64,000 nt of DNA from NCBI GenBank assembly GCA_965237955.1, contig OZ250169.1, positions 3,008,001 to 3,072,000 of the forward strand, given 5' to 3'. This stretch comes from Candidatus Marinacidobacterales bacterium (GTDB lineage Bacteria > Acidobacteriota > Vicinamibacteria > Marinacidobacterales > SMYC01). The position numbers and the translations under genes are program-made. A model generated the notes under the pieces. The model did no database searches. It was given only the letters and a program-made list of their open reading frames with translations, and had not been told where the DNA came from. This document shows, piece after piece, positions 1 to 60,849 of this stretch; position 1 is the stretch's first letter; each line of letters opens with the position of its first letter.

Positions 1-1179
1 GGCCGCGTACCGCTCGGCTATGAGAAGGACGGGCGCACGCTGCGCATCAACGAGGCTGAGGCCGAAACGGTCCGGACGCTCTATGCGCTGTACCGAAAGC
101 ACGAAACGCTCCGGCAGGTGAAGGCCGAGGCGGACCGTCTGAGACTGCGTACCAAGCAACGCTTCACCGCGGATGGAACCCGAACGGGCGGGCTGCCGTT
201 CCGTCGCGGACACCTCCACTGCCTGCTGACCAATCCTCTCTACGCCGGCCGCATCCGGCACCAGAGGCGTGTCTACGAGGGCCAGCATCCATCGATCATT
301 GCTCCGGAGCTCTGGGACGCGGTCCAAACGCAGCTGCAGGCAGGGGCTGCCAAACCAAGGAGACGCACGACGAAGGGCCGTGCCGCCCGTTCCCCACTGG
401 CAGGCAAGCTCTTCGACGAGACCGGGGACCGGCTGACGCCGAGCCACACCAAAAAGAAAAACGGGCAACGGCTCCGCTACTACGTCTCCCGGCGCCTCAT
501 CCAGCACAGTGGCCAAAAGGACCTCTCCGGCTGGCGACTGCCCGCCCCGATGCTGGAACAGACCGCCGTGCATCTCATCCGACAGCATGTGGATGCCACG
601 ACCTTCTCGGCCTCGTTGATCCACACTCCGACGATGCAAGAGCTCGCCTCGGTGCGTCGCTTTTTAGACGGGCTGTGTTCCGGTAGTAATGATGATAGTG
701 CCTCGGCAGCCCCCCTGCTCCGTCTTATCCGGCGGGTCGACATCAGCCCCGGCTCTGTGTCCATCCTGCTCGACCGCAATGCGTTCGCTGCTTGCCTCTC
801 TATGGGACCCGAACGCATTCGCGAGGATGCACTCCGCATCCTCGCACCGTTCCGCTTGCGTCGACGCAGCGTCGAGACCAAGCTCGTTCTGGGCAACCCC
901 ACGAAATCCGTCGACCGCACACTCCTGCGCAATATCAGAAACGCCCGCTCCTGGCTCGGCCGAATCAAAGCAGGCAAAACCTATGAGCAGATTGCCACCG
1001 AAAACGCCATCCCAACGGACCGCGTGCGCAAGGCAATCCGTTATGCCTTCCTGGCTCCCGACATCGTCCGCGCCATTGTCGAAGGCCGCCAGCCCGTTGG
1101 GCTGACCTCGAGCTACCTCTTGCATCATCCGCTTCCCGACGATTGGGAGAAACAGCGAGTGCTCGTCAAAACGCTGTGA
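1..1179 (+). CDS. Large serine recombinase, C-terminal part (gene begins before the window)
   Basis: Frame is open from base 1 (GRVPLGY...). It carries the recombinase-domain motifs LTNPLYAG and GQHPSII, plus SPLAGKLFD...RYY. Bases 1-56 nearly duplicate 6391-6446. Confidence 0.85.
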   Translation, partial: GRVPLGYEKDGRTLRINEAEAETVRTLYALYRKHETLRQVKAEADRLRLRTKQRFTADGTRTGGLPFRRGHLHCLLTNPLYAGRIRHQRRVYEGQHPSIIAPELWDAVQTQLQAGAAKPRRRTTKGRAARSPLAGKLFDETGDRLTPSHTKKKNGQRLRYYVSRRLIQHSGQKDLSGWRLPAPMLEQTAVHLIRQHVDATTFSASLIHTPTMQELASVRRFLDGLCSGSNDDSASAAPLLRLIRRVDISPGSVSILLDRNAFAACLSMGPERIREDALRILAPFRLRRRSVETKLVLGNPTKSVDRTLLRNIRNARSWLGRIKAGKTYEQIATENAIPTDRVRKAIRYAFLAPDIVRAIVEGRQPVGLTSSYLLHHPLPDDWEKQRVLVKTL

Positions 1180-2038: not shown

Positions 2039-2100
2039 CCCCGTCCTGTGCCAAAACTCGGCCCTTTTGAAATAGACCATTAATCAGCAGCTTAGTGTCT
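2039..2100 (+). mobile_element. Isolated terminal repeat of rve-integrase element 'A'
   Basis: CCCCGTCCTGTGCCAAAACTCGGCCCTTTTGAAATAG matches the ends of the full element at 60850-62283. Confidence 0.8.
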
Positions 2101-2294: not shown

Positions 2295-2529
2295 GGTTTT
2301 GGTGCCGCGTAACCCGCTCGTGTGCTAGAGTTTGAGCCTGATTTCGAGAGACGCAGTTCTTTCGGCGATGCGGGCTGGGCTGACCACACGGTGCCTGACG
2401 TTCAGAGACACCTTCGTGTGCACGCCGACATCCTTAATTAATGGCGTTCGCCGACACAGGCAGACCAGCTGACACTAGCATTCAAACACGGCGTAGCAAC
2501 ATATCTGGACTCCTCTAGTCAAGCCCCTT

Positions 2530-2810
2530 TCTTAATAAATCTTCCATCGAAGCTGCGCATCCATCGCGTCGTGACGAGTGGGTCAGACTGCAAACGTATC
2601 TTCGGCCTCAGTGAGGAGCGTCTTGGGTGCTCCGGGCCATGATGGAAAATCCGCGCGCGAGGAGCCAATCACTTTGAACGACCTCTTAGGGCCAGTGTTG
2701 CTATCGGCTTGACCCCGCGCCGGTCCGACCGGTACGCCATCAGTTGGATGGGTATCGTCGCAGCCTCTCTTTTGGAAGGGAAAAAGGAAAACACGAAAGT
2801 GGAGCCTCTA
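2530..2810 (-). ncRNA. Predicted bridge/seek RNA of IS1111 (boundaries approximate; 9 copies in the window)
   Basis: The stem-internal loop-stem at 2663-2709 carries target matches. The one at 2590-2654 carries donor matches. Confidence 0.8.
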
Positions 2811-2813
2811 AGT

Positions 2814-3845
2814 CTAAGCGGCCATCGGCGACTGGAATTCACTCTCGCGGGTGGAGACGGCCCAGACGATCCGGGCGAGTTTGTTGGCGACAGCAATCAC
2901 GGCCTTGTTGTGTCCCCGCGAGCGGTGGACCTTCCGAGCCCAGGCGCGGAGCTTGTCGGGCGGGCTCTTACTGACGTTCGCCGCGCGGAGCACGGCGCGC
3001 CCGCCCTGGGTGAGGAGCATACGGAGGTAGGAGTCGCCACGCTTGGTGATGCGTCCGAGGCGGCGAATGTCGCCACTGGAGTTTTCCTTGGGAACTAGGC
3101 CGAGGTAGCTCGAGAAGCGGCGCCCCGATGGGAAGCGGCGAAGATCGCCGACGAAGCCCACGATGGCGGTCGCGGTCAGAAGTCCGATGCCGGGAATGGC
3201 GAGAAGTCGTTGGACTTCAGGAAGCTGCTTGGTGAGCGCCTTGAGCTCGTGCTCGATGCCAGCGCACTTGTCCTTGAGTTCTCGAATCTCGGAGCAGGCA
3301 TCACGGAGATGCGAACGGAGCACGTCGGGCAAATCAGAATCAGCGTCTTCGACGAGTTCGAAGAGGGCGGGCACGACGAAGTGAGCGCCCTTTGGGATGA
3401 TGAATCCGAGTTCGCGCAGGATCCCGCGTACGGCATTGATGCGTGCGGTCCGTGTGGAGAGCCATCCTGAGCGCAGGCGATGGAGCGCGGCGAGGCTGTG
3501 CTGGTGCACGGACTTAATGGGCACGGGAAGAATCTCCTCGTTCCTGTAGGCCTCGAGCAACGCTTTGGCGTCGGCGCGGTCGTTCTTGCTCCCGCGTCGA
3601 TAGGGCCTCACGAGGTGAGGTGGGAGCAGGACGACGTCGTGTCCCAACCTTCGGAACGTCCTTGCCCAGAAGTGAGCAGAGCCGCAGGCTTCGAGAAGCA
3701 CGGTGGCAGCGCTCTGTTTGGCAAAAAACGACACCAACTTGGGTCGACTCACACGGAGTTGCTTGGACACCTTCCCCGCTTCTCCCGAGATGGCAATCTC
3801 GAAGACGTTCTTTGCAAGATCCACAGCGATCGTCGTATCTTTCAT
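2814..3845 (-). CDS. IS110-family DEDD recombinase/transposase (343 aa)
   Basis: Motifs AVDLAK, LEACG, KNDRAD and YLGLVP..SSG. An AGGAGG RBS precedes MKDTT. Confidence 0.95.
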   Translation of the reverse strand: MKDTTIAVDLAKNVFEIAISGEAGKVSKQLRVSRPKLVSFFAKQSAATVLLEACGSAHFWARTFRRLGHDVVLLPPHLVRPYRRGSKNDRADAKALLEAYRNEEILPVPIKSVHQHSLAALHRLRSGWLSTRTARINAVRGILRELGFIIPKGAHFVVPALFELVEDADSDLPDVLRSHLRDACSEIRELKDKCAGIEHELKALTKQLPEVQRLLAIPGIGLLTATAIVGFVGDLRRFPSGRRFSSYLGLVPKENSSGDIRRLGRITKRGDSYLRMLLTQGGRAVLRAANVSKSPPDKLRAWARKVHRSRGHNKAVIAVANKLARIVWAVSTRESEFQSPMAA

Positions 3846-3973
3846 TCGGACTCCTCCTTTTCGATGCGTATTCGACTGACTTTGGCACATCGATGCCGTC
3901 TATGTCAGCGGAGGAGTCCATTCCATCACTTGATGGCGGAAGCACTTGATGGCGGAAGCACCGAATAGAGTCC

Positions 3974-5455
3974 ATGCCGACGGCAAGAACCAGCGAGAGC
4001 CACCCACTGCGCATCACGGCGATGACCCTGGGCGACGGCCGGGGCCGGATCGGCTTCTCGCAGTGCCCCGGTAGGATCGATCGCTACGCAATATCCGGGC
4101 CCTGGAAGCGGGATCTCGACACCGACCTCGACGCGATTCAGCGCTGGGGAGCGACTGCGGTGGTCAGCCTGATCACCCACGAAGAGATCCCCGATCTGAA
4201 GGTGCACGATCTCCCGAGGGCGGTTCGAGACCGGCACATGGAGTGGTGGCATGCCCCGATTCCCGACGGAGAGGCACCGGAACAGGACTTCGAGCACGCC
4301 TGGAAGGCCACCGGCGAGTCCATCCGGAACCGGCTGCGGCTCGGCTTCGACGTGCTGCTCCACTGCCGGGGTGGTCTGGGACGCGCCGGGACCATCACAG
4401 CCCGCCTGCTGGTGGAGTTGGGCGTGCAACCGGACGATGCGATCCGCCGCGTGCGCGACGCCCGCGAATGGACCATCGAGAACGGCTCCCAGCTGGCTCA
4501 CGTGAGGCAGTGTTCGGCACAAGCACCATCGGTTCCATCCCGGACCGCGGACGACATCCACGACCGGGCGCTCGGGGCCTTCCTCGGTCTGGCGGTGGGC
4601 GACGCGGTCGGCACGACGCTCGAATTCTGCTCCCGCGATACGCAGCCGCGTCTAGAAGACATGGTCGGTGGCGGCCCGTTCGATCTGCCGGCCGGCGCTT
4701 GGACCGACGACACGGCCATGGCGCTGGCCCTGGCCGACAGCCTGGCGGAATCCAAGACGCTCGACTGCCGGGACCTGATGGACCGTTTCGTGAAGTGGTG
4801 GCGAGACGGAGACTACTCGTGGAGCGGAGACTGCTTCGACATTGGAAACACGACCTGCCAAGCGCTCACCCGGTACCTACGGACGGGTGACCCGGTCGCG
4901 GGTTCGACCGATCCCTTGAGCGCAGGCAACGGCTCGCTGATGCGGCTCGCCCCCGTTGCGCTCCGGTTCAGGCACGACCGGCCGCGCCTGCTCGCGGCAG
5001 CCGCCGACCAGTCCCGGACGACCCACGGAGGCGAGGAAGCAGTGGACGCCTGCCGGGCGTTCGGCGCACTCCTGGCAGACGCCATCGCCGGGTCACCGTT
5101 CTCGGACGTTCTGGCTCCGAGACGGTTCACGGGAGCGGCGGCAATCACTCAGGTCATAGCCGGCAGCTGGCGAGGACGGACACGGGATACGATCCGCTCC
5201 AGCGGGTACGTCGTTCACACGCTCGAAGCCGCCATCTGGTCAGTCGCCCGCACCGGAGACTTCCGCGGCGCGGTGCTGCTCGCGGCCAACCTGGCCGACG
5301 ACGCCGATACGGTAGCAGCAGTGACGGGGCAGCTCGCCGGCGCCCTCTACGGCCTGAACGCCATCCCCGACCACTGGCGGGAACGCGTTGCCTGGAAGGA
5401 TCGACTCCTGGCAGCGGCGCGGCGGTTGCTGTCGGAACCCCTTGCCGACCGGTAG
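3974..5455 (+). CDS. Cys-phosphatase (CDKN3/PTP-like) fused to ADP-ribosylglycohydrolase, allele 1
   Basis: HCRGGLGRAG P-loop. ARH motifs GDAVG, WTDDT, GNGSLMR and DADTVAAVTG. Confidence 0.9.
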   Translation: MPTARTSESHPLRITAMTLGDGRGRIGFSQCPGRIDRYAISGPWKRDLDTDLDAIQRWGATAVVSLITHEEIPDLKVHDLPRAVRDRHMEWWHAPIPDGEAPEQDFEHAWKATGESIRNRLRLGFDVLLHCRGGLGRAGTITARLLVELGVQPDDAIRRVRDAREWTIENGSQLAHVRQCSAQAPSVPSRTADDIHDRALGAFLGLAVGDAVGTTLEFCSRDTQPRLEDMVGGGPFDLPAGAWTDDTAMALALADSLAESKTLDCRDLMDRFVKWWRDGDYSWSGDCFDIGNTTCQALTRYLRTGDPVAGSTDPLSAGNGSLMRLAPVALRFRHDRPRLLAAAADQSRTTHGGEEAVDACRAFGALLADAIAGSPFSDVLAPRRFTGAAAITQVIAGSWRGRTRDTIRSSGYVVHTLEAAIWSVARTGDFRGAVLLAANLADDADTVAAVTGQLAGALYGLNAIPDHWRERVAWKDRLLAAARRLLSEPLADR

Positions 5456-5475: not shown

Positions 5476-5564
5476 GCACGGCTCTTGACCCGGTCGCAAA
5501 CACAGACACTAAGCTGCTGATATTATGCTCTGTTTCAAAAGGCCGAGTTTTGGCACAGGACGGG
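5476..5564 (-). mobile_element. Element A terminal repeat abutting the ARH gene 3' end
   Basis: ...CGCAAACACAGACACTAAG...CCGAGTTTTGGCACAGGACGGG. Confidence 0.8.
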
Positions 5565-5906
5565 CAGCTCCGCCAAGCTCGCTCTCGCGTATCTTCATGC
5601 GCCGCGTTCTCTTGCACGAACGCCAGTGCCGGACCCATGGCGGGCTTTCGGCCGCAACCCGGCGCTCTCTGGCCGCTATGGCGAACGAGACACCAGGCAA
5701 CGCCGCTCCCGCAGGGTCCGTTTCTACCGGCACCCATCTCGTCCGCGAGTGGAATGGCCGGACCTACCAGGTCGAGGTAGTCGACAACGGCTATCGGTTC
5801 GACGGCAAAACCTATCCGTCCCTCACCGCCATCACAAAAGCGAATCACCGGCACCCACTGGTCAGGACCACGCTTTTTCGGTCTGACGCCCAAGCGCAAG
5901 GCCTAA
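5565..5906 (+). pseudogene. DUF2924-like protein, 5'-truncated and frameshifted near 5838
   Basis: LVREWNGRTYQVEV...YPSLTAI, then ITGTHWSGPRFFGL in another frame. This family typically sits upstream of serine recombinases. Confidence 0.75.
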
Positions 5907-5907
5907 C

Positions 5908-6450
5908 ATGAAGAAAATCCGCTGTGCCATCTATACGCGAAAGAGCGCGGAAGAGGGTCTCGAGCAGGAGTTCAACTCCCTCGATGCGCAGCGAGAAGCC
6001 TGCGCCGCGTATGTCGCGAGCCACAAGGCGGAGGGCTGGGTGCTGCTGCGGACTGTCTACGAGGACGCGGGACTCTCGGGAGGAACCCTGGAGCGCCCGG
6101 GCCTGCAGCGCTTGCTCGCCGACATCGATGCCGGTCTCGTCGAGCAGATCGTGGTCTACAAGGTCGACCGGCTGACCCGTTCCCTCTCCGACTTTGCGAA
6201 GCTCGTCGAACGGCTCGAGGCGGCCGGCGCGGTTTTCGTCTCGGTGACTCAGTCCTTCAACACCGCGACCAGCATGGGACGACTGACGCTGCATATGCTG
6301 CTGTCCTTCGCACAATTCGAACGCGAGGTCACGGCCGAGCGGATCCGCGATAAGGTCGCTGCCTCCAAGCGCAAGGGACTATGGATGGGCGGCCGCGTAC
6401 CGCTCGGCTATGAGAAGGACGAGCGCACGCTGCGCATCAACGAGGCCTAA
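5908..6450 (+). pseudogene. Serine recombinase N-terminal catalytic domain, truncated duplicate
   Basis: CAIYTRKS and VYKVDRLTRS motifs. It stops at INEA*, where the copy at 1-1179 continues. Confidence 0.85.
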
Positions 6451-19298: not shown

Positions 19299-19774
19299 AT
19301 ATCTGGACTCCTCTAGTCAAGCCCCTTTCTTAATAAATCTTCCATCGAAGCTGCGCATCCATCGCGTCGTGACGAGTGGGTCAGACTGCAAACGTATCTT
19401 CGGCCTCAGTGAGGAGCGTCTTGGGTGCTCCGGGCCATGATGGAAAATCCGCGCGCGAGGAGCCAATCACTTTGAACGACCTCTCTTAGGGCTAGTGTTG
19501 CTATCGGCTTGACCCCGCGCCGGTCCGACCGGTACGCCATCAGTTGGATGGGTATCGTCGCAGCCTCTTTTGGAAGGGAAAAAGGAAAACACGAAAGTGG
19601 AGCCTCTAAGTCTAAGCGGCCATCGGCGACTGGAATTCACTCTCGCGGGTGGAGACGGCCCAGACGATCCGGGCGAGTTTGTTGGCGACAGCAATCACGG
19701 CCTTGTTGTGTCCCCGCGAGCGGTGGACCTTCCGAGCCCAGGCGCGGAGCTTGTCGGGCGGGCTCTTACTGACG
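19299..19774 (-). repeat. Extra IS1111 right-end unit (bridge RNA plus transposase 3' tip)
   Basis: Starts ATATCTGGACTCC and breaks at TTACTGACG, where TATCTGGACTCC restarts. Confidence 0.9.
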
Positions 19775-21197
19775 TATCTGGACTCCTCTAGTCAAGCCCC
19801 TTTCTTAATAAATCTTCCATCGAAGCTGCGCATCCATCGCGTCGTGACGAGTGGGTCAGACTGCAAACGTATCTTCGGCCTCAGTGAGGAGCGTCTTGGG
19901 TGCTCCGGGCCATGATGGAAAATCCGCGCGCGAGGAGCCAATCACTTTGAACGACCTCTTAGGGCCAGTGTTGCTATCGGCTTGACCCCGCGCCGGTCCG
20001 ACCGGTACGCCATCAGTTGGATGGGTATCGTCGCAGCCTCTTTTGGAAGGGAAAAAGGAAAACACGAAAGTGGAGCCTCTAAGTCTAAGCGGCCATCGGC
20101 GACTGGAATTCACTCTCGCGGGTGGAGACGGCCCAGACGATCCGGGCGAGTTTGTTGGCGACAGCAATCACGGCCTTGTTGTGTCCCCGCGAGCGGTGGA
20201 CCTTCCGAGCCCAGGCGCGGAGCTTGTCGGGCGGGCTCTTACTGACGTTCGCCGCGCGGAGCACGGCGCGCCCGCCCTGGGTGAGGAGCATACGGAGGTA
20301 GGAGTCGCCACGCTTGGTGATGCGTCCGAGGCGGCGAATGTCGCCACTGGAGTTTTCCTTGGGAACTAGGCCGAGGTAGCTCGAGAAGCGGCGCCCCGAT
20401 GGGAAGCGGCGAAGATCGCCGACGAAGCCCACGATGGCGGTCGCGGTCAGAAGTCCGATGCCGGGAATGGCGAGAAGTCGTTGGACTTCAGGAAGCTGCT
20501 TGGTGAGCGCCTTGAGCTCGTGCTCGATGCCAGCGCACTTGTCCTTGAGTTCTCGAATCTCGGAGCAGGCATCACGGAGATGCGAACGGAGCACGTCGGG
20601 CAAATCAGAATCAGCGTCTTCGACGAGTTCGAAGAGGGCGGGCACGACGAAGTGAGCGCCCTTTGGGATGATGAATCCGAGTTCGCGCAGGATCCCGCGT
20701 ACGGCATTGATGCGTGCGGTCCGTGTGGAGAGCCATCCTGAGCGCAGGCGATGGAGCGCGGCGAGGCTGTGCTGGTGCACGGACTTAATGGGCACGGGAA
20801 GAATCTCCTCGTTCCTGTAGGCCTCGAGCAACGCTTTGGCGTCGGCGCGGTCGTTCTTGCTCCCGCGTCGATAGGGCCTCACGAGGTGAGGTGGGAGCAG
20901 GACGACGTCGTGTCCCAACCTTCGGAACGTCCTTGCCCAGAAGTGAGCAGAGCCGCAGGCTTCGAGAAGCACGGTGGCAGCGCTCTGTTTGGCAAAAAAC
21001 GACACCAACTTGGGTCGACTCACACGGAGTTGCTTGGACACCTTCCCCGCTTCTCCCGAGATGGCAATCTCGAAGACGTTCTTTGCAAGATCCACAGCGA
21101 TCGTCGTATCTTTCATTCGGACTCCTCCTTTTCGATGCGTATTCGACTGACTTTGGCACATCGATGCCGTCTATGTCAGCGGAGGAGTCCATTCCAT
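19775..21197 (-). mobile_element. IS1111 copy 2
   Basis: Near-identical to 2501-3926. Confidence 0.93.
20085..21116 (-). CDS. IS110-family recombinase
   Basis: Protein is identical to 2814-3845. Confidence 0.95.
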   Translation of the reverse strand: MKDTTIAVDLAKNVFEIAISGEAGKVSKQLRVSRPKLVSFFAKQSAATVLLEACGSAHFWARTFRRLGHDVVLLPPHLVRPYRRGSKNDRADAKALLEAYRNEEILPVPIKSVHQHSLAALHRLRSGWLSTRTARINAVRGILRELGFIIPKGAHFVVPALFELVEDADSDLPDVLRSHLRDACSEIRELKDKCAGIEHELKALTKQLPEVQRLLAIPGIGLLTATAIVGFVGDLRRFPSGRRFSSYLGLVPKENSSGDIRRLGRITKRGDSYLRMLLTQGGRAVLRAANVSKSPPDKLRAWARKVHRSRGHNKAVIAVANKLARIVWAVSTRESEFQSPMAA

Positions 21198-21390
21198 CAC
21201 TTGATGGCGGAAGCACCTCCCGGACTCGACGACGACCTCCTCGGCCATGGTACAGTATCGACGCTGGCGCCGCCTGGTGATCCCAGGCTGGACACATGGT
21301 TGGCGCTTTACGCTCGGACATTGTTCGCGGACGAGATCGCAGAGTGTGTGGCTTTCTGGACAGCATGCGAGACCTGCAACAGACTCTCTG

Positions 21391-34352: not shown

Positions 34353-35776
34353 ATATCTGGACTCCTCTAGTCAAGCCCCTTTCTTAATAAATCTTCCATC
34401 GAAGCTGCGCATCCATCGCGTCGTGACGAGTGGGTCAGACTGCAAACGTATCTTCGGCCTCAGTGAGGAGCGTCTTGGGTGCTCCGGGCCATGATGGAAA
34501 ATCCGCGCGCGAGGAGCCAATCACTTTGAACGACCTCTTAGGGCCAGTGTTGCTATCGGCTTGACCCCGCGCCGGTCCGACCGGTACGCCATCAGTTGGA
34601 TGGGTATCGTCGCAGCCTCTTTTGGAAGGGAAAAAGGAAAACACGAAAGTGGAGCCTCTAAGTCTAAGCGGCCATCGGCGACTGGAATTCACTCTCGCGG
34701 GTGGAGACGGCCCAGACGATCCGGGCGAGTTTGTTGGCGACAGCAATCACGGCCTTGTTGTGTCCCCGCGAGCGGTGGACCTTCCGAGCCCAGGCGCGGA
34801 GCTTGTCGGGCGGGCTCTTACTGACGTTCGCCGCGCGGAGCACGGCGCGCCCGCCCTGGGTGAGGAGCATACGGAGGTAGGAGTCGCCACGCTTGGTGAT
34901 GCGTCCGAGGCGGCGAATGTCGCCACTGGAGTTTTCCTTGGGAACTAGGCCGAGGTAGCTCGAGAAGCGGCGCCCCGATGGGAAGCGGCGAAGATCGCCG
35001 ACGAAGCCCACGATGGCGGTCGCGGTCAGAAGTCCGATGCCGGGAATGGCGAGAAGTCGTTGGACTTCAGGAAGCTGCTTGGTGAGCGCCTTGAGCTCGT
35101 GCTCGATGCCAGCGCACTTGTCCTTGAGTTCTCGAATCTCGGAGCAGGCATCACGGAGATGCGAACGGAGCACGTCGGGCAAATCAGAATCAGCGTCTTC
35201 GACGAGTTCGAAGAGGGCGGGCACGACGAAGTGAGCGCCCTTTGGGATGATGAATCCGAGTTCGCGCAGGATCCCGCGTACGGCATTGATGCGTGCGGTC
35301 CGTGTGGAGAGCCATCCTGAGCGCAGGCGATGGAGCGCGGCGAGGCTGTGCTGGTGCACGGACTTAATGGGCACGGGAAGAATCTCCTCGTTCCTGTAGG
35401 CCTCGAGCAACGCTTTGGCGTCGGCGCGGTCGTTCTTGCTCCCGCGTCGATAGGGCCTCACGAGGTGAGGTGGGAGCAGGACGACGTCGTGTCCCAACCT
35501 TCGGAACGTCCTTGCCCAGAAGTGAGCAGAGCCGCAGGCTTCGAGAAGCACGGTGGCAGCGCTCTGTTTGGCAAAAAACGACACCAACTTGGGTCGACTC
35601 ACACGGAGTTGCTTGGACACCTTCCCCGCTTCTCCCGAGATGGCAATCTCGAAGACGTTCTTTGCAAGATCCACAGCGATCGTCGTATCTTTCATTCGGA
35701 CTCCTCCTTTTCGATGCGTATTCGACTGACTTTGGCACATCGATGCCGTCTATGTCAGCGGAGGAGTCCATTCCAT
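34353..35776 (-). mobile_element. IS1111 copy 3, in a more diverged MITE-B-like end
   Basis: Junctions GCGTAGCAAC-AT and AT-CACTTGATGGCAGAAGCACC. Confidence 0.93.
34664..35695 (-). CDS. IS110-family recombinase
   Basis: Protein is identical to the other copies. Confidence 0.95.
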   Translation of the reverse strand: MKDTTIAVDLAKNVFEIAISGEAGKVSKQLRVSRPKLVSFFAKQSAATVLLEACGSAHFWARTFRRLGHDVVLLPPHLVRPYRRGSKNDRADAKALLEAYRNEEILPVPIKSVHQHSLAALHRLRSGWLSTRTARINAVRGILRELGFIIPKGAHFVVPALFELVEDADSDLPDVLRSHLRDACSEIRELKDKCAGIEHELKALTKQLPEVQRLLAIPGIGLLTATAIVGFVGDLRRFPSGRRFSSYLGLVPKENSSGDIRRLGRITKRGDSYLRMLLTQGGRAVLRAANVSKSPPDKLRAWARKVHRSRGHNKAVIAVANKLARIVWAVSTRESEFQSPMAA

Positions 35777-35796
35777 CACTTGATGGCAGAAGCACC

Positions 35797-40731: not shown

Positions 40732-42400
40732 GGTGCTTCCGCAATCAAGTGTTGGTGACTGCCGCGTAACCCGCTCGTGTGCTAGAGTTTGAGCCTGATT
40801 TCGGGAGACGCAGTTTTTTCGACGATGCGGGCTGGGCTGACCACACGGTGCCTGACATTCAGGGACACCTTCGTGTGCACGCCGACATCCTTATCAATGG
40901 CGTTCGCCGACACAGGCAGGCCAGCTGACATTAGCATTCAAACACGGCGTAGCAACATATCTGGACTCCTCTAGTCAAGCCCCTTTCTTAATAAATCTTC
41001 CATCGAAGCTGCGCATCCATCGCGTCGTGACGAGTGGGTCAGACTGCAAACGTATCTTCGGCCTCAGTGAGGAGCGTCTTGGGTGCTCCGGGCCATGATG
41101 GAAAATCCGCGCGCGAGGAGCCAATCACTTTGAACGACCTCTTAGGGCCAGTGTTGCTATCGGCTTGACCCCGCGCCGGTCCGACCGGTACGCCATCAGT
41201 TGGATGGGTATCGTCGCAGCCTCTTTTGGAAGGGAAAAAGGAAAACACGAAAGTGGAGCCTCTAAGTCTAAGCGGCCATCGGCGACTGGAATTCACTCTC
41301 GCGGGTGGAGACGGCCCAGACGATCCGGGCGAGTTTGTTGGCGACAGCAATCACGGCCTTGTTGTGTCCCCGCGAGCGGTGGACCTTCCGAGCCCAGGCG
41401 CGGAGCTTGTCGGGCGGGCTCTTACTGACGTTCGCCGCGCGGAGCACGGCGCGCCCGCCCTGGGTGAGGAGCATACGGAGGTAGGAGTCGCCACGCTTGG
41501 TGATGCGTCCGAGGCGGCGAATGTCGCCACTGGAGTTTTCCTTGGGAACTAGGCCGAGGTAGCTCGAGAAGCGGCGCCCCGATGGGAAGCGGCGAAGATC
41601 GCCGACGAAGCCCACGATGGCGGTCGCGGTCAGAAGTCCGATGCCGGGAATGGCGAGAAGTCGTTGGACTTCAGGAAGCTGCTTGGTGAGCGCCTTGAGC
41701 TCGTGCTCGATGCCAGCGCACTTGTCCTTGAGTTCTCGAATCTCGGAGCAGGCATCACGGAGATGCGAACGGAGCACGTCGGGCAAATCAGAATCAGCGT
41801 CTTCGACGAGTTCGAAGAGGGCGGGCACGACGAAGTGAGCGCCCTTTGGGATGATGAATCCGAGTTCGCGCAGGATCCCGCGTACGGCATTGATGCGTGC
41901 GGTCCGTGTGGAGAGCCATCCTGAGCGCAGGCGATGGAGCGCGGCGAGGCTGTGCTGGTGCACGGACTTAATGGGCACGGGAAGAATCTCCTCGTTCCTG
42001 TAGGCCTCGAGCAACGCTTTGGCGTCGGCGCGGTCGTTCTTGCTCCCGCGTCGATAGGGCCTCACGAGGTGAGGTGGGAGCAGGACGACGTCGTGTCCCA
42101 ACCTTCGGAACGTCCTTGCCCAGAAGTGAGCAGAGCCGCAGGCTTCGAGAAGCACGGTGGCAGCGCTCTGTTTGGCAAAAAACGACACCAACTTGGGTCG
42201 ACTCACACGGAGTTGCTTGGACACCTTCCCCGCTTCTCCCGAGATGGCAATCTCGAAGACGTTCTTTGCAAGATCCACAGCGATCGTCGTATCTTTCATT
42301 CGGACTCCTCCTTTTCGATGCGTATTCGACTGACTTTGGCACATCGATGCCGTCTATGTCAGCGGAGGAGTCCATTCCATCACTTGATGGCGGAAGCACC
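40732..42400. mobile_element. MITE B carrying IS1111 copy 4 (40957-42380)
   Basis: Both MITE IRs are present and the insertion point is the same. Confidence 0.9.
41268..42299 (-). CDS. IS110-family recombinase
   Basis: Protein is identical to the other copies. Confidence 0.95.
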   Translation of the reverse strand: MKDTTIAVDLAKNVFEIAISGEAGKVSKQLRVSRPKLVSFFAKQSAATVLLEACGSAHFWARTFRRLGHDVVLLPPHLVRPYRRGSKNDRADAKALLEAYRNEEILPVPIKSVHQHSLAALHRLRSGWLSTRTARINAVRGILRELGFIIPKGAHFVVPALFELVEDADSDLPDVLRSHLRDACSEIRELKDKCAGIEHELKALTKQLPEVQRLLAIPGIGLLTATAIVGFVGDLRRFPSGRRFSSYLGLVPKENSSGDIRRLGRITKRGDSYLRMLLTQGGRAVLRAANVSKSPPDKLRAWARKVHRSRGHNKAVIAVANKLARIVWAVSTRESEFQSPMAA

Positions 42401-43910: not shown

Positions 43911-44994
43911 ATATCTGGACTCCTCTAGTCAAGCCCCTTTCTTAATAAATCTTCCATCGAAGCTGCGCATCCATCGCGTCGTGACGAGTGGGTCAGACTG
44001 CAAACGTATCTTCGGCCTCAGTGAGGAGCGTCTTGGGTGCTCCGGGCCATGATGGAAAATCCGCGCGCGAGGAGCCAATCACTTTGAACGACCTCTTAGG
44101 GCCAGTGTTGCTATCGGCTTGACCCCGCGCCGGTCCGACCGGTACGCCATCAGTTGGATGGGTATCGTCGCAGCCTCTTTTGGAAGGGAAAAAGGAAAAC
44201 ACGAAAGTGGAGCCTCTAAGTCTAAGCGGCCATCGGCGACTGGAATTCACTCTCGCGGGTGGAGACGGCCCAGACGATCCGGGCGAGTTTGTTGGCGACA
44301 GCAATCATATCTGGACTCCTCTAGTCAAGCCCCTTTCTTAATAAATCTTCCATCGAAGCTGCGCATCCATCGCGTCGTGACGAGTGGGTCAGACTGCAAA
44401 CGTATCTTCGGCCTCAGTGAGGAGCGTCTTGGGTGCTCCGGGCCATGATGGAAAATCCGCGCGCGAGGAGCCAATCACTTTGAACGACCTCTTAGGGCCA
44501 GTGTTGCTATCGGCTTGACCCCGCGCCGGTCCGACCGGTACGCCATCAGTTGGATGGGTATCGTCGCAGCCTCTTTTGGAAGGGAAAAAGGAAAACACGT
44601 ATCTGGACTCCTCTAGTCAAGCCCCTTTCTTAATAAATCTTCCATCGAAGCTGCGCATCCATCGCGTCGTGACGAGTGGGTCAGACTGCAAACGTATCTT
44701 CGGCCTCAGTGAGGAGCGTCTTGGGTGCTCCGGGCCATGATGGAAAATCCGCGCGCGAGGAGCCAATCACTTTGAACGACCTCTTAGGGCCAGTGTTGCT
44801 ATCGGCTTGACCCCGCGCCGGTCCGACCGGTACGCCATCAGTTGGATGGGTATCGTCGCAGCCTCTTTTGGAAGGGAAAAAGGAAAACACGAAAGTGGAG
44901 CCTCTAAGTCTAAGCGGCCATCGGCGACTGGAATTCACTCTCGCGGGTGGAGACGGCCCAGACGATCCGGGCGAGTTTGTTGGCGACAGCAATC
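43911..44994 (-). repeat. Three tandem extra IS1111 right-end (bridge RNA) units of 396, 293 and 395 bp
   Basis: (A)TATCTGGACTCC restarts at 43911, 44307, 44600 and 44995. Confidence 0.92.
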
Positions 44995-45307
44995 ATATCT
45001 GGACTCCTCTAGTCAAGCCCCTTTCTTAATAAATCTTCCATCGAAGCTGCGCATCCATCGCGTCGTGACGAGTGGGTCAGACTGCAAACGTATCTTCGGC
45101 CTCAGTGAGGAGCGTCTTGGGTGCTCCGGGCCATGATGGAAAATCCGCGCGCGAGGAGCCAATCACTTTGAACGACCTCTTAGGGCCAGTGTTGCTATCG
45201 GCTTGACCCCGCGCCGGTCCGACCGGTACGCCATCAGTTGGATGGGTATCGTCGCAGCCTCTCTTTTGGAAGGGAAAAAGGAAAACACGAAAGTGGAGCC
45301 TCTAAGT

Positions 45308-46339
45308 CTAAGCGGCCATCGGCGACTGGAATTCACTCTCGCGGGTGGAGACGGCCCAGACGATCCGGGCGAGTTTGTTGGCGACAGCAATCACGGCCTT
45401 GTTGTGTCCCCGCGAGCGGTGGACCTTCCGAGCCCAGGCGCGGAGCTTGTCGGGCGGGCTCTTACTGACGTTCGCCGCGCGGAGCACGGCGCGCCCGCCC
45501 TGGGTGAGGAGCATACGGAGGTAGGAGTCGCCACGCTTGGTGATGCGTCCGAGGCGGCGAATGTCGCCACTGGAGTTTTCCTTGGGAACTAGGCCGAGGT
45601 AGCTCGAGAAGCGGCGCCCCGATGGGAAGCGGCGAAGATCGCCGACGAAGCCCACGATGGCGGTCGCGGTCAGAAGTCCGATGCCGGGAATGGCGAGAAG
45701 TCGTTGGACTTCAGGAAGCTGCTTGGTGAGCGCCTTGAGCTCGTGCTCGATGCCAGCGCACTTGTCCTTGAGTTCTCGAATCTCGGAGCAGGCATCACGG
45801 AGATGCGAACGGAGCACGTCGGGCAAATCAGAATCAGCGTCTTCGACGAGTTCGAAGAGGGCGGGCACGACGAAGTGAGCGCCCTTTGGGATGATGAATC
45901 CGAGTTCGCGCAGGATCCCGCGTACGGCATTGATGCGTGCGGTCCGTGTGGAGAGCCATCCTGAGCGCAGGCGATGGAGCGCGGCGAGGCTGTGCTGGTG
46001 CACGGACTTAATGGGCACGGGAAGAATCTCCTCGTTCCTGTAGGCCTCGAGCAACGCTTTGGCGTCGGCGCGGTCGTTCTTGCTCCCGCGTCGATAGGGC
46101 CTCACGAGGTGAGGTGGGAGCAGGACGACGTCGTGTCCCAACCTTCGGAACGTCCTTGCCCAGAAGTGAGCAGAGCCGCAGGCTTCGAGAAGCACGGTGG
46201 CAGCGCTCTGTTTGGCAAAAAACGACACCAACTTGGGTCGACTCACACGGAGTTGCTTGGACACCTTCCCCGCTTCTCCCGAGATGGCAATCTCGAAGAC
46301 GTTCTTTGCAAGATCCACAGCGATCGTCGTATCTTTCAT
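45308..46339 (-). CDS. IS110-family recombinase
   Basis: Protein is identical to the other copies. Confidence 0.95.
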   Translation of the reverse strand: MKDTTIAVDLAKNVFEIAISGEAGKVSKQLRVSRPKLVSFFAKQSAATVLLEACGSAHFWARTFRRLGHDVVLLPPHLVRPYRRGSKNDRADAKALLEAYRNEEILPVPIKSVHQHSLAALHRLRSGWLSTRTARINAVRGILRELGFIIPKGAHFVVPALFELVEDADSDLPDVLRSHLRDACSEIRELKDKCAGIEHELKALTKQLPEVQRLLAIPGIGLLTATAIVGFVGDLRRFPSGRRFSSYLGLVPKENSSGDIRRLGRITKRGDSYLRMLLTQGGRAVLRAANVSKSPPDKLRAWARKVHRSRGHNKAVIAVANKLARIVWAVSTRESEFQSPMAA

Positions 46340-46486
46340 TCGGACTCCTCCTTTTCGATGCGTATTCGACTGACTTTGGCACATCGATGCCGTCTATGTC
46401 AGCGGAGGAGTCCATTCCATCACTTGATGGCGGAAGCACCGCACAGGACGGGGTCAAGAGCCGTGCTTCGGCTACCCACCCAACTT

Positions 46487-59390: not shown

Positions 59391-60849
59391 CTACGCCTTG
59401 TCGAGCTTCGCGTCATAGACCAGCGCGAGCTTTGCTTTCCCGACTTTCCGGCGATACTCATTTCGGAGAGCACCGATCCTCTGCCACTCGCCGCTTGCGT
59501 CGCGGCAGTACCAGTAGTCCCACCCGTTCCCCGATTTGCTGGTCACGGCAGAGAAGGCCGTGCTCGGGCTGTCGTGGCACTCGTTGTTTACCTCCAGTTG
59601 TCCGTTGCTCTTAATGCGGCCCCGGACGACTTCGCCCTTGAACGATAGACGCCACTGGTCACCGTAACGGACGAGTCCGGCCTTCAAGAGATCCCCGATA
59701 GTAACGCGCTGGCCGTGCACACTGACCGGTCCCCCCTTGGCCCGATTGCCGCCTTCCGGCCCGCTGTCCTGGACAGCATCGTCGGTGTGAATTGCCTTGG
59801 CCCCGAGATCCACCGGGGTCCGGACCAGCGCGAGCTTCGCTTTTCCGACTCGCCGGCGATACTCACTTCGGAGAGCATCGATCCTCTGCCATTCGCCCCC
59901 AGCGTCGCGGTAGTGCCAGTAGTACCACCCGTTGCCCGGCTTGCTGGTCACGGCAGAGAAGGCTTTGCTCGGGTTACCGTGACCCTTGTTGTTAACCTCC
60001 AGCTGTCCGTTTCTCTCAATGCGGCCCCAGACGACTTCGCCCTTGAGCGATAGACGCCACTGGTCACCCTCACGGACGAGTCCAGTCTTCAAAAGATCCC
60101 CGATAGTAACGCGCTTGCCGTGCGCACTGACGGGCCCTCCCTTGGCCCGATTGCCGCTTTCCAGCACACTGTCTTGGACCGCATCGTCGGTGTGAATTGC
60201 CTCGGCCTCAAGATCCACCGGGATTCGGCCGGCTTCGTCTGAGATCGATTCCACATAAGCCTTGATGTGCTTCATGCTGATCTTGATCCCATCAGGCAGC
60301 CCAACTCGTTCTTCCTTGAACTCTCGCTGAATTGCCTTACACAACGTGTCGAAAGGAGTGCTGAGCAGGCTATCGAGAGCCAGTTTGATCCGGCTGTGAA
60401 TCATGTGCTCTTCGTACGCGTGCTGGATCTCTTCGTTCTCCAGACACTCGCGTGACAGCAGGCTGGTGAGATGCTTGAGGAACTCGTCCATCGTAAACCC
60501 GCTGTCGGTGTCCACCGTCTTGATCTCTAGCGTGAGGAACTTCTGTTCCTCGAAAGACTTGCCACCGCGGGAGTTGTAGAGGACGTACCGGTTGCCGTCA
60601 GATAGAACGCCCCATTGAACCCCCATCGCGCCGAGGTAGGAGGTGAGCTGCTTGACGTGGTTCTTGTGGCCGATGTTGCTACCGAGTCGCTTGGCCTCCA
60701 AGAGCAGGATGGGTTTCGCAGACTTTTTTTTCGAGCTGTAAAACGCGTAGTCGACCGGCTCGTTGAATTCGGGCACGCGTGGCTCACTCTTGATGGAGTC
60801 AAAATCGGTAAAGTCCCACTGGAGCGCGCGAAACAACGAGTTGATGAGA
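59391..60849 (-). pseudogene. HsdR_N-type PD-(D/E)XK nuclease with two tandem RAMA-like domains, 5' end cut by element A
   Basis: PVDYAF...LLEAKR...QL..Y...WGVLSDG. A 405-bp repeat encodes TIGDLL..GL...G.I..NGQL...NGW.YW. Confidence 0.75.

Follow-up and report, generated by a model that had tools for sequence, protein, structure and literature searches.

The long non-coding region that follows the recombinase gene of an IS110-family element raises the question of whether it encodes a bridge (or seek) RNA and, if so, at which base this RNA would direct recombination. The element lies in the 64-kb window (the whole stretch of DNA analysed here), within an 8.13-Mb genome assembled as one contig (G000); the relatives with which it is compared include genomes A and B, and the unpublished genome G327 was left out of all claims. 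Our best explanation, which we hold to be very likely as a whole, is that the locus is an IS1111 insertion sequence (2502–3928) whose 3' region probably acts as a bridge RNA and sends the recombinase to one end repeat, which an IS1-like element shares with its MITEs.

A sequence-only reading of the locus had proposed an intact 343-aa recombinase, recent activity and a bispecific RNA encoded 3' of the gene. The recombinase is indeed intact: ORF 3845–2814 carries both IS110 Pfam domains, PF01548 (DEDD RuvC-like) and PF02371 (Transposase_20), scores 308.9 bits against the NCBIfam model NF033542 (cut-off 140) and has the DEDD residues and catalytic serine of the IS1111 group (Table 1), S257 being the SSG serine of an ENSSG motif that aligns with the ESG serine of IS621. 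Activity is borne out in the sense of recent multiplication: the genome contains 17 full copies, 16 of them at 97.8–100% identity and one at 91%, besides many fragments, and the identical protein is encoded at 14 places. Five full copies lie in the window; the earlier reading gave neither the identity of the target, nor the four other copies, nor the duplications anchored at its cut site. Close relatives are present in five assemblies labelled Candidatus Marinacidobacterales, mostly with 89–100% protein identity in the best segment.

The ends of the element can be read from sites that it has not entered. The core first proposed was AT, with the target TAGCAAC-AT-CACTT, the donor CATTCC-AT-ATCTGG and two simple internal loops, and one copy taken by itself would formally allow an AT (or CAT) repeat at both junctions. 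But this 14-nt joined target has no exact and no one-mismatch match in the 8.13-Mb genome, where unfilled repeat ends read ...GCAA-CA-CTTGATGG, and four contigs of an independent run (X1) track the window up to position 2501 and then continue into CTTGATGG. IS1111 subterminal inverted repeats have 7-bp and 3-bp extensions (PMC11187229), and only a CA core gives these here (3922–3928 and 2502–2504, respectively), together with a left end that is the ISPa25 left end in 19 of 20 nt. Because the empty sites, the end rule and the ISPa25-like left end concur, we take CA as the core and 2502–3928 as the element. The crossover falls directly after this dinucleotide, which reads TG on the transposase strand, and the reconstructed sites become TAGCAA-CA-CTTGA for the target and TTCCAT-CA-TATCT for the donor. 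The left guide matches also lengthen under CA, from 8 to 10 nt for the target and from 6 to 9 nt for the donor. The AT core is thus refuted by the empty-site sequence and retains practically no probability, even though the 7-nt match at 2668–2674 that speaks for it is real. Comparison of empty and filled sites also reveals a fixed target and orientation without target duplication, as expected for the IS1111 group, the CA at 3927–3928 being the element's and that at 2500–2501 the target's; likewise, 312 bp of non-coding DNA lie 3' of the gene versus 83 bp 5' of it, the long 3' region typical of IS1111. The circle junction was absent from the genome and from the joints of four contig runs, contigs being prone to drop rare forms; the promoter that it would create is a weak match (TTGACT, 18 bp, TGGAAT, the latter 4/6), and a sigma-70 scan of the linear element returned no site. 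Contigs of the RNA libraries X17 and X18, which as contigs cannot show an RNA, cover parts of the element. The corrected junctions are a precondition for bench tests, any of which would fail with the earlier ones.

Table 1. Positions, strands and supporting evidence of the features of the element, its RNA, its target and the other full copies in the window.
Feature	Position	Strand	Basis or remark
IS1111-group IS110 element, 1427 bp	2502–3928	-	empty/filled sites; 7- and 3-bp extensions; ISPa25-like left end
Subterminal inverted repeat, RNA end, 3 bp inside end	2505–2515	.	sequence
Subterminal inverted repeat, gene-start end, 10/11 match, 7 bp inside end	3911–3921	.	sequence
DEDD recombinase, 343 aa; D9, E52, D89, D92, S257	2814–3845	-	Pfam, NCBIfam, alignment
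Predicted bridge/seek RNA region	2584–2768	-	ends inferred from fold and conservation
Left target guide	2694–2703	-	10/10 identical to target positions 2–11 (6-nt arm, CA, 2 nt beyond)
Right target guide	2670–2677	-	pairs with CA, and with CTTGA given one bulged A (5/5 bulged, 3/5 unbulged)
Target-loop handshake guide, AU	2668–2669	-	complementary to donor positions 6–7 (AT)
Left donor guide	2639–2647	-	9/9 identical to donor positions 2–10
Right donor guide	2595–2601	-	5/5 to TATCT; core pairing is G:C plus a C:A mismatch
Donor-loop handshake position, UU	2593–2594	-	complementary to target positions 6–7 (AA)
Left target half with its CA	2494–2501	+	precedes 18/25 RNA-end junctions genome-wide
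Right target half and first unit of 16-bp tandem duplication, starting at first base past crossover	3929–3944	+	
Second 16-bp unit and outer end of host terminal repeat	3945–3962	+	
Body of ~244-bp MITE-like host element, far end lost	2303–2501	+	empty copy at G000 704979–705222
Second full copy (19775–21199), preceded by a 473-bp RNA-end duplication with junction dinucleotide CG	19300–21199	-	
Third full copy	34354–35778	-	
Fourth full copy, within complete host MITE	40958–42382	-	
Fifth full copy (44996–46422), preceded by three tandem RNA-end units (396, 292, 396 bp)	43912–46422	-	

With these junctions, the guides match the target and the donor beyond chance: among 20,000 Markov-resampled 3' non-coding regions, a target match of at least 10 nt arose 41 times, a donor match of at least 9 nt 155 times, and both together never. 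The letters quoted for the guides in the earlier reading are all present (2696–2703, 2668–2674, 2642–2647 and 2597–2601). Its 7-nt match to the right target half, at 2668–2674, stands as to the letters but has to be divided, because it arises from a right guide that pairs with the core and the right target and from the next two bases, AU, which pair with donor positions 6–7. The latter would be a handshake guide, a type of dinucleotide pairing described in PMC11208158 and PMC13626964, and both sides of the handshake pair in the window element.

The predicted fold contains, within a long stem, a target-binding internal loop whose stems covary in 40 homologues, with 92–97% of the cells paired in helices 1–3. 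The donor guides, for their part, flank a GGCC hairpin. The stem previously thought to close the donor loop has a predicted pairing probability of 0.0, versus 1.0 for a competing outer stem; in 30 homologues it is pairable in 88.5% of the cells but does not covary (337 of 500 shuffles reach it), whereas the outer stem and the donor hairpin do (0 of 500 shuffles on four of five measures), which leaves the earlier stem unsupported rather than excluded. According to this folding model, the donor guides of the window element likely lie in a multiloop, as described for many IS1111 RNAs (PMC11208160). Note that the 3' GC of the RNA (2584–2768, minus strand) has two conserved, mutually exclusive pairings, with the outer stem or with the stem first proposed; these alternatives could constitute a switch between a long and a processed RNA. 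A search of Rfam returned no relevant family, only two chance matches.

If the guides direct recombination, they should change in step with the flanking DNA, a check that the sequence-only reading had named. We pooled 123 homologous loci, cutting the window lineage to three representatives; 108 of them had enough downstream DNA, and all 108 match the RNA profile (99 distinct RNAs). Both ends were called by script in 69 of the 99, and one miscall was dropped, leaving 68, among which some calls may be off. Guides agree with their cognate DNA at 4.89 of 6 left-arm positions versus 2.58 ± 0.14 after permutation (54 distinct guides, the best of three registers being used for both) and at 4.02 of 5 right-arm positions versus 1.51 ± 0.15 (49 distinct guides); within the clade of at least 45.5% identity, the values are 4.86 versus 3.50 on the left (28 guides) and 3.58 versus 1.88 on the right (26 guides). 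In each test none of 10,000 permutations reached the observed value, a significance that is overstated insofar as kin are not independent. Guide–target covariation is thus found across about 50 guides, which bears out a bispecific RNA 3' of the gene: as expected of a bridge or seek RNA, unpaired guides match both target and donor strands and covary with the DNA. On sequence grounds, we regard this covariation, the boundaries, the four guide segments, a crossover after CA and the 18 perfect filled sites described below as established. The 91%-identical copy offers a case within the same genome, its changed guide being accompanied by a matching changed flank. This copy (G000 5245814–5247238, L208) has a reprogrammed target loop with a 7-nt left arm and sits in an unrelated site, which fits its own guide at 8 of 9 left and 4 of 5 right positions.

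The homologues also delimit which parts of the scheme are general. Of the two handshakes, that of the target loop pairs with donor DNA in 59 of 68 loci and that of the donor loop with target DNA in just 9 of 64. Among 35 clear cases, 22 left arms have 8 nt, 10 have 7 nt and three have 6 nt, two of the latter being the window lineage and one doubtful; the guide of the window lineage also has a junction in the 7-nt register (L031). A bulged right guide is better by at least two pairs in 7 of 30 loci. Finally, the junction dinucleotides of the two ends differ in 52 of 64 loci; therefore a shared 2-bp core is not required.

As its target the IS1111 element uses a repeat that terminates an IS1-like element and its MITEs and is present at about 200 ends (216–219 matches in the genome). 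These repeats form inverted pairs, 48 of them within 8 kb, many 165–167 or about 240 bp long. One pair, 1197 bp long, encloses a transposase that matches the IS1 model NF033558 at 78.8 bits (cut-off 100) and PF03400 at 21.2 (cut-off 24.1); because these scores fall below the cut-offs, we call the host IS1-like only. IS1 duplicates 8–9 bp of its target, and none of the 48 host pairs displays a target-site duplication of at least 4 bp. One IS1111 copy interrupts the end of an IS1-like element (G000 7864835). The possibility that the target is an attC site was rejected, the repeat being an inverted terminal pair that encloses transposase genes or MITEs.

Occupancy of these ends follows the guide closely. 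In the main lineage, a perfect left half precedes all 18 outward junctions, in 13 distinct left flanks, and a perfect right half follows all 24 other ends, while none of 192 empty ends is perfect and 15 have one mismatch; the one exception is a perfect 13-mer left unfilled in a truncated end. Genome A is equally strict (25 perfect, one other). In genome B, with the same left guide, one of 11 RNA-end junctions outside the element is perfect and four of the 10 others are short self-duplications; target fidelity is thus not general. The many off-target junctions of genome B (L028–L036, L046) accompany an RNA whose right donor guide has UG for CG and whose left donor guide has wobble changes; these differences are candidate determinants of fidelity.

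Several other features of the host repeats and of the surrounding DNA were noted. The family shares a terminal repeat of about 24 bp around very varied interiors, many of exactly 165–167 bp (e.g. G000 3086457–3087653, L211). A second repeated end, starting CGTCCTGTGC (window 2043–2080, with many flanks), often adjoins the host repeat on one or both sides and cuts off several IS1111 copies at one position (1121–1122); it probably belongs to another IS. At G000 289216, 7884667, 3137927, 3087636, 7927003 and 7995397, what adjoins the right target half at CA is unrelated or shortened sequence, possibly through one-ended deletions made where the recombinase cuts. At window positions 118–1179, 5525–6450 and 3974–5455, a serine-recombinase module (Recombinase, DUF2924, Resolvase) is present in pieces around a phosphatase/ADP-ribosylglycohydrolase fusion.

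The best plasmid match, ISPa25 of the IS1111-attC group, is 46% identical in protein and has the same RNA scaffold and guide positions; its seekRNA was predicted in PMC11187229. ISPa25 differs in its attC target, 8-nt left arm and CG/CA junction dinucleotides, whereas the window element has a transposon end-repeat target, a 6-nt arm, CA/CA and a bulged right guide. The ends and RNA scaffold of the window element are those of the IS1111-attC clade, but it does not insert into attC and was not filed in that group. Because ISPa25 and most of the clade (25 of 31 homologues) have an attC-like left flank of the YYAAC type, sequence comparison suggests that the window lineage was likely retargeted from attC-targeting, ISPa25-like ancestors through guide letter changes and a slip of 1–2 nt in the left guide. 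Elsewhere among the homologues, a sub-clade (L083, L118, L120) is retargeted to another conserved site, TAGCAGCC-CG-TGGTGA, and a relative of 65–69% identity from the same family (L222, L223; G309) occupies a different, palindromic target.

That IS1111 elements target other mobile elements is already known: IS4321 and IS5075 are members that target Tn21-family terminal inverted repeats. The window element resembles them in parasitizing the terminal repeat of another element and differs from them in its host, an IS1-like element and MITEs with about 200 ends on a single chromosome, of which only the guide-matching type is used. With IS621 it shares the four guide segments, the 14-position frame and the predicted cut after position 9 (PMC11208160, PMC11208158, PMC13626964), as well as the target-loop handshake dinucleotides (AU versus donor AT) and a bulge in a right guide. 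IS621, however, belongs to the IS110 group, has its RNA upstream of the gene, a CT core common to target and donor and a simple donor loop, as described in these sources; its protein is distant (E = 2e-8), and the RNA of the window element lies downstream of the gene and is oriented opposite to the target.

By analogy with IS621 and CazIS110-1, the RNA would be made and bound by the enzyme, which would cut the strand resembling the left guides just past CA (after position 9), hold position 10 as a 5'-phosphoserine and then swap strands, the swap being driven by the handshake pairs (two before exchange and four after). For this step, PMC11208158 describes a cut after position 9 that leaves position 10 linked as a 5'-phosphoserine. 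Most likely, only the cut strand would be moved, host replication completing the reaction (copy-out, paste-in). When the junction dinucleotides were assigned to target or donor guides, the single-strand pattern prevailed by 18 to 5 with 22 ties among loci that, as kin, are not independent; this strand-direction test modestly favors single-strand transfer, in agreement with the top-strand copy-out reported in preprints (bioRxiv 10.1101/2025.10.25.684509, 10.64898/2026.08.31.748434).

The junctions contain a second record of the reaction. We found 15 distinct tandem duplications, nine in G000 and six in relatives, that start at the first base past the predicted cut, and an element junction is where three of the window's five tandem arrays begin. 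The G000 units are of two sorts: those of 292, 338, 396 and 473 bp begin with the first RNA-end base, and those of 16, 48, 61, 62 and 79 bp, among them a seven-unit array (G000 2861924), with the first base of the right target half; the RNA-end units of relatives measure 29, 46, 284, about 390, 565 and about 800 bp. In G000, 9 of 44 primary junctions carry anchored duplications, versus none of 150 empty ends and 2 of 2000 randomly chosen places. All duplications found near G000 junctions start at position 10; about five near junctions in relatives do not. Three 16-bp cases share one origin; the count of 15 does not include the composite L028 junction. The window segment around the IS and the serine-recombinase pieces was copied, since the element and its 16-bp duplication are found again, with an unchanged right flank, at G000 2974143 and 7874094. 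Repeats of 116, 119, 509 and 602 bp were dropped, being separate repeat ends rather than tandem units, and a 405-bp two-copy tandem repeat of 87% identity at window 59418–60222 is unrelated to the element.

The other boundary of the units follows a rule as well: every one of the 15 has C-N at its end (CA in nine, CG in two, CC in two and CT in two). This rule bears on a reading in which the guides are the same but movement follows the Holliday-junction model of IS621, both strands recombining conservatively across a 2-bp core common to the two sites, and the duplications result from slippage or unequal crossing-over. CA at both junctions in the window lineage, the exchange of both strands seen in IS621 structures (PMC11208158), the 2-bp microhomology of the nine units that end in CA and the unanchored duplications of some relatives would all fit it. 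But the six units ending in CG, CC or CT place the break exactly at the predicted cut, and microhomology therefore cannot explain them; moreover, none of the 150 empty ends is duplicated despite the same CA and right half, and junction dinucleotides mostly differ among the homologues, as seen above. We therefore consider two-strand exchange unlikely. That the arrays are assembly artefacts of a repeat-rich genome is more improbable still, although all of them do come from assembled genomes: unit lengths differ between loci, the anchoring is exact, the C-N rule holds, arrays occur in three assemblies (G000 and genomes A and B), and one short-read contig from another study has a joint returning to position 2502 (depth 5). 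We also rejected the idea that the self-junctions are guide-directed off-target insertions, as past the C the unit ends barely match either the target or the donor arm, and no leftover part of a split copy turned up.

The likely source of the duplications is a one-ended reaction at junctions that are already filled. In our preferred route, the free 3' end would be extended past the junction by strand displacement and then, at a downstream C-N gripped by the G of the right guide, be ligated again to position 10, which the enzyme still holds; we put this extension and re-ligation at somewhat below an even chance. Enzyme-made duplication by another route, either one-ended transfer to the sister chromatid or excision of a partial circle that re-enters at the same junction, has close to an even chance, these two together being about as likely as extension. 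Units made in either way should likewise begin at position 10 and have an end resembling a core, and precedents exist: one-ended top-strand transfer for CazIS110-1 (bioRxiv 10.1101/2025.10.25.684509), half-match recombination for IS621 (bioRxiv 10.64898/2026.08.31.748434) and partial circles reusing a terminus in Hu et al. (bioRxiv 10.64898/2026.08.14.744561). On the other hand, units of 16, 29, 46 and 48 bp would seem very small for a circle, or for two sites to join in one complex in cis, unit ends have little guide match beyond the C, and no reciprocal deletion was seen at 18 left or 25 right junctions. Taken as a whole, the extension scheme amounts to a base-precise scar, which we propose tentatively: a nick, a hold on position 10, polymerase extension over 16–800 nt and re-ligation at any C-N held by the right guide, such that guide-independent overshoot would amplify the guide-RNA gene and duplicate target-side host DNA, while the same element may read its target in more than one guide register.

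How much of this is new can be delimited. Bridge or seek RNAs 3' of IS1111 genes are already established (PMC11208160, PMC11187229), and the RNA itself was expected. Tandem non-coding units beside IS110 elements were reported by Hu et al. (n = 468; bioRxiv 10.64898/2026.08.14.744561), whose units keep left-donor matches, an asymmetry called unresolved there; by contrast, window-lineage units start at base 10 of the right donor or right target and uniformly end in C-N, and some of them are located outside the element. Single-strand copy-out and one-sided reactions are likewise described for IS110 (bioRxiv 10.64898/2026.08.31.748434, 10.1101/2025.10.25.684509), and the word IS1111 is absent from the main text of both 2026 preprints (10.64898/2026.08.14.744561 and 10.64898/2026.08.31.748434). 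ISPpu9 and ssr9 are similar in having extra, at times tandem, RNA-module copies beside an IS110 transposase (PMC12288879), but ssr9 is described as a separate MITE with its own end boxes, whereas each window unit repeats part of the element's own end, up to an internal breakpoint that varies. Thus, tandem expansion and single-strand copy-out are known from preprints of 2025–26, while the window element and base-level anchoring at position 10 in an IS1111 were not found in the openly available running text of the literature.

For the study of guide fidelity, this genome is a natural specificity screen, offering about 200 near-target sites of which only perfect ones are filled, together with a promiscuous close relative that differs by few RNA changes. 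The cut-anchored duplications, in turn, are a product class that users of bridge editing should check for at insertion junctions, and a simple readout of one-strand versus two-strand transfer in the little-studied IS1111 group. If the proposed scheme is true, overshoot builds arrays of the element's own guide-RNA gene, as before the fifth copy of the window, where each of the three RNA-end units holds the whole RNA region and the gene is present in four copies (43912–46422).
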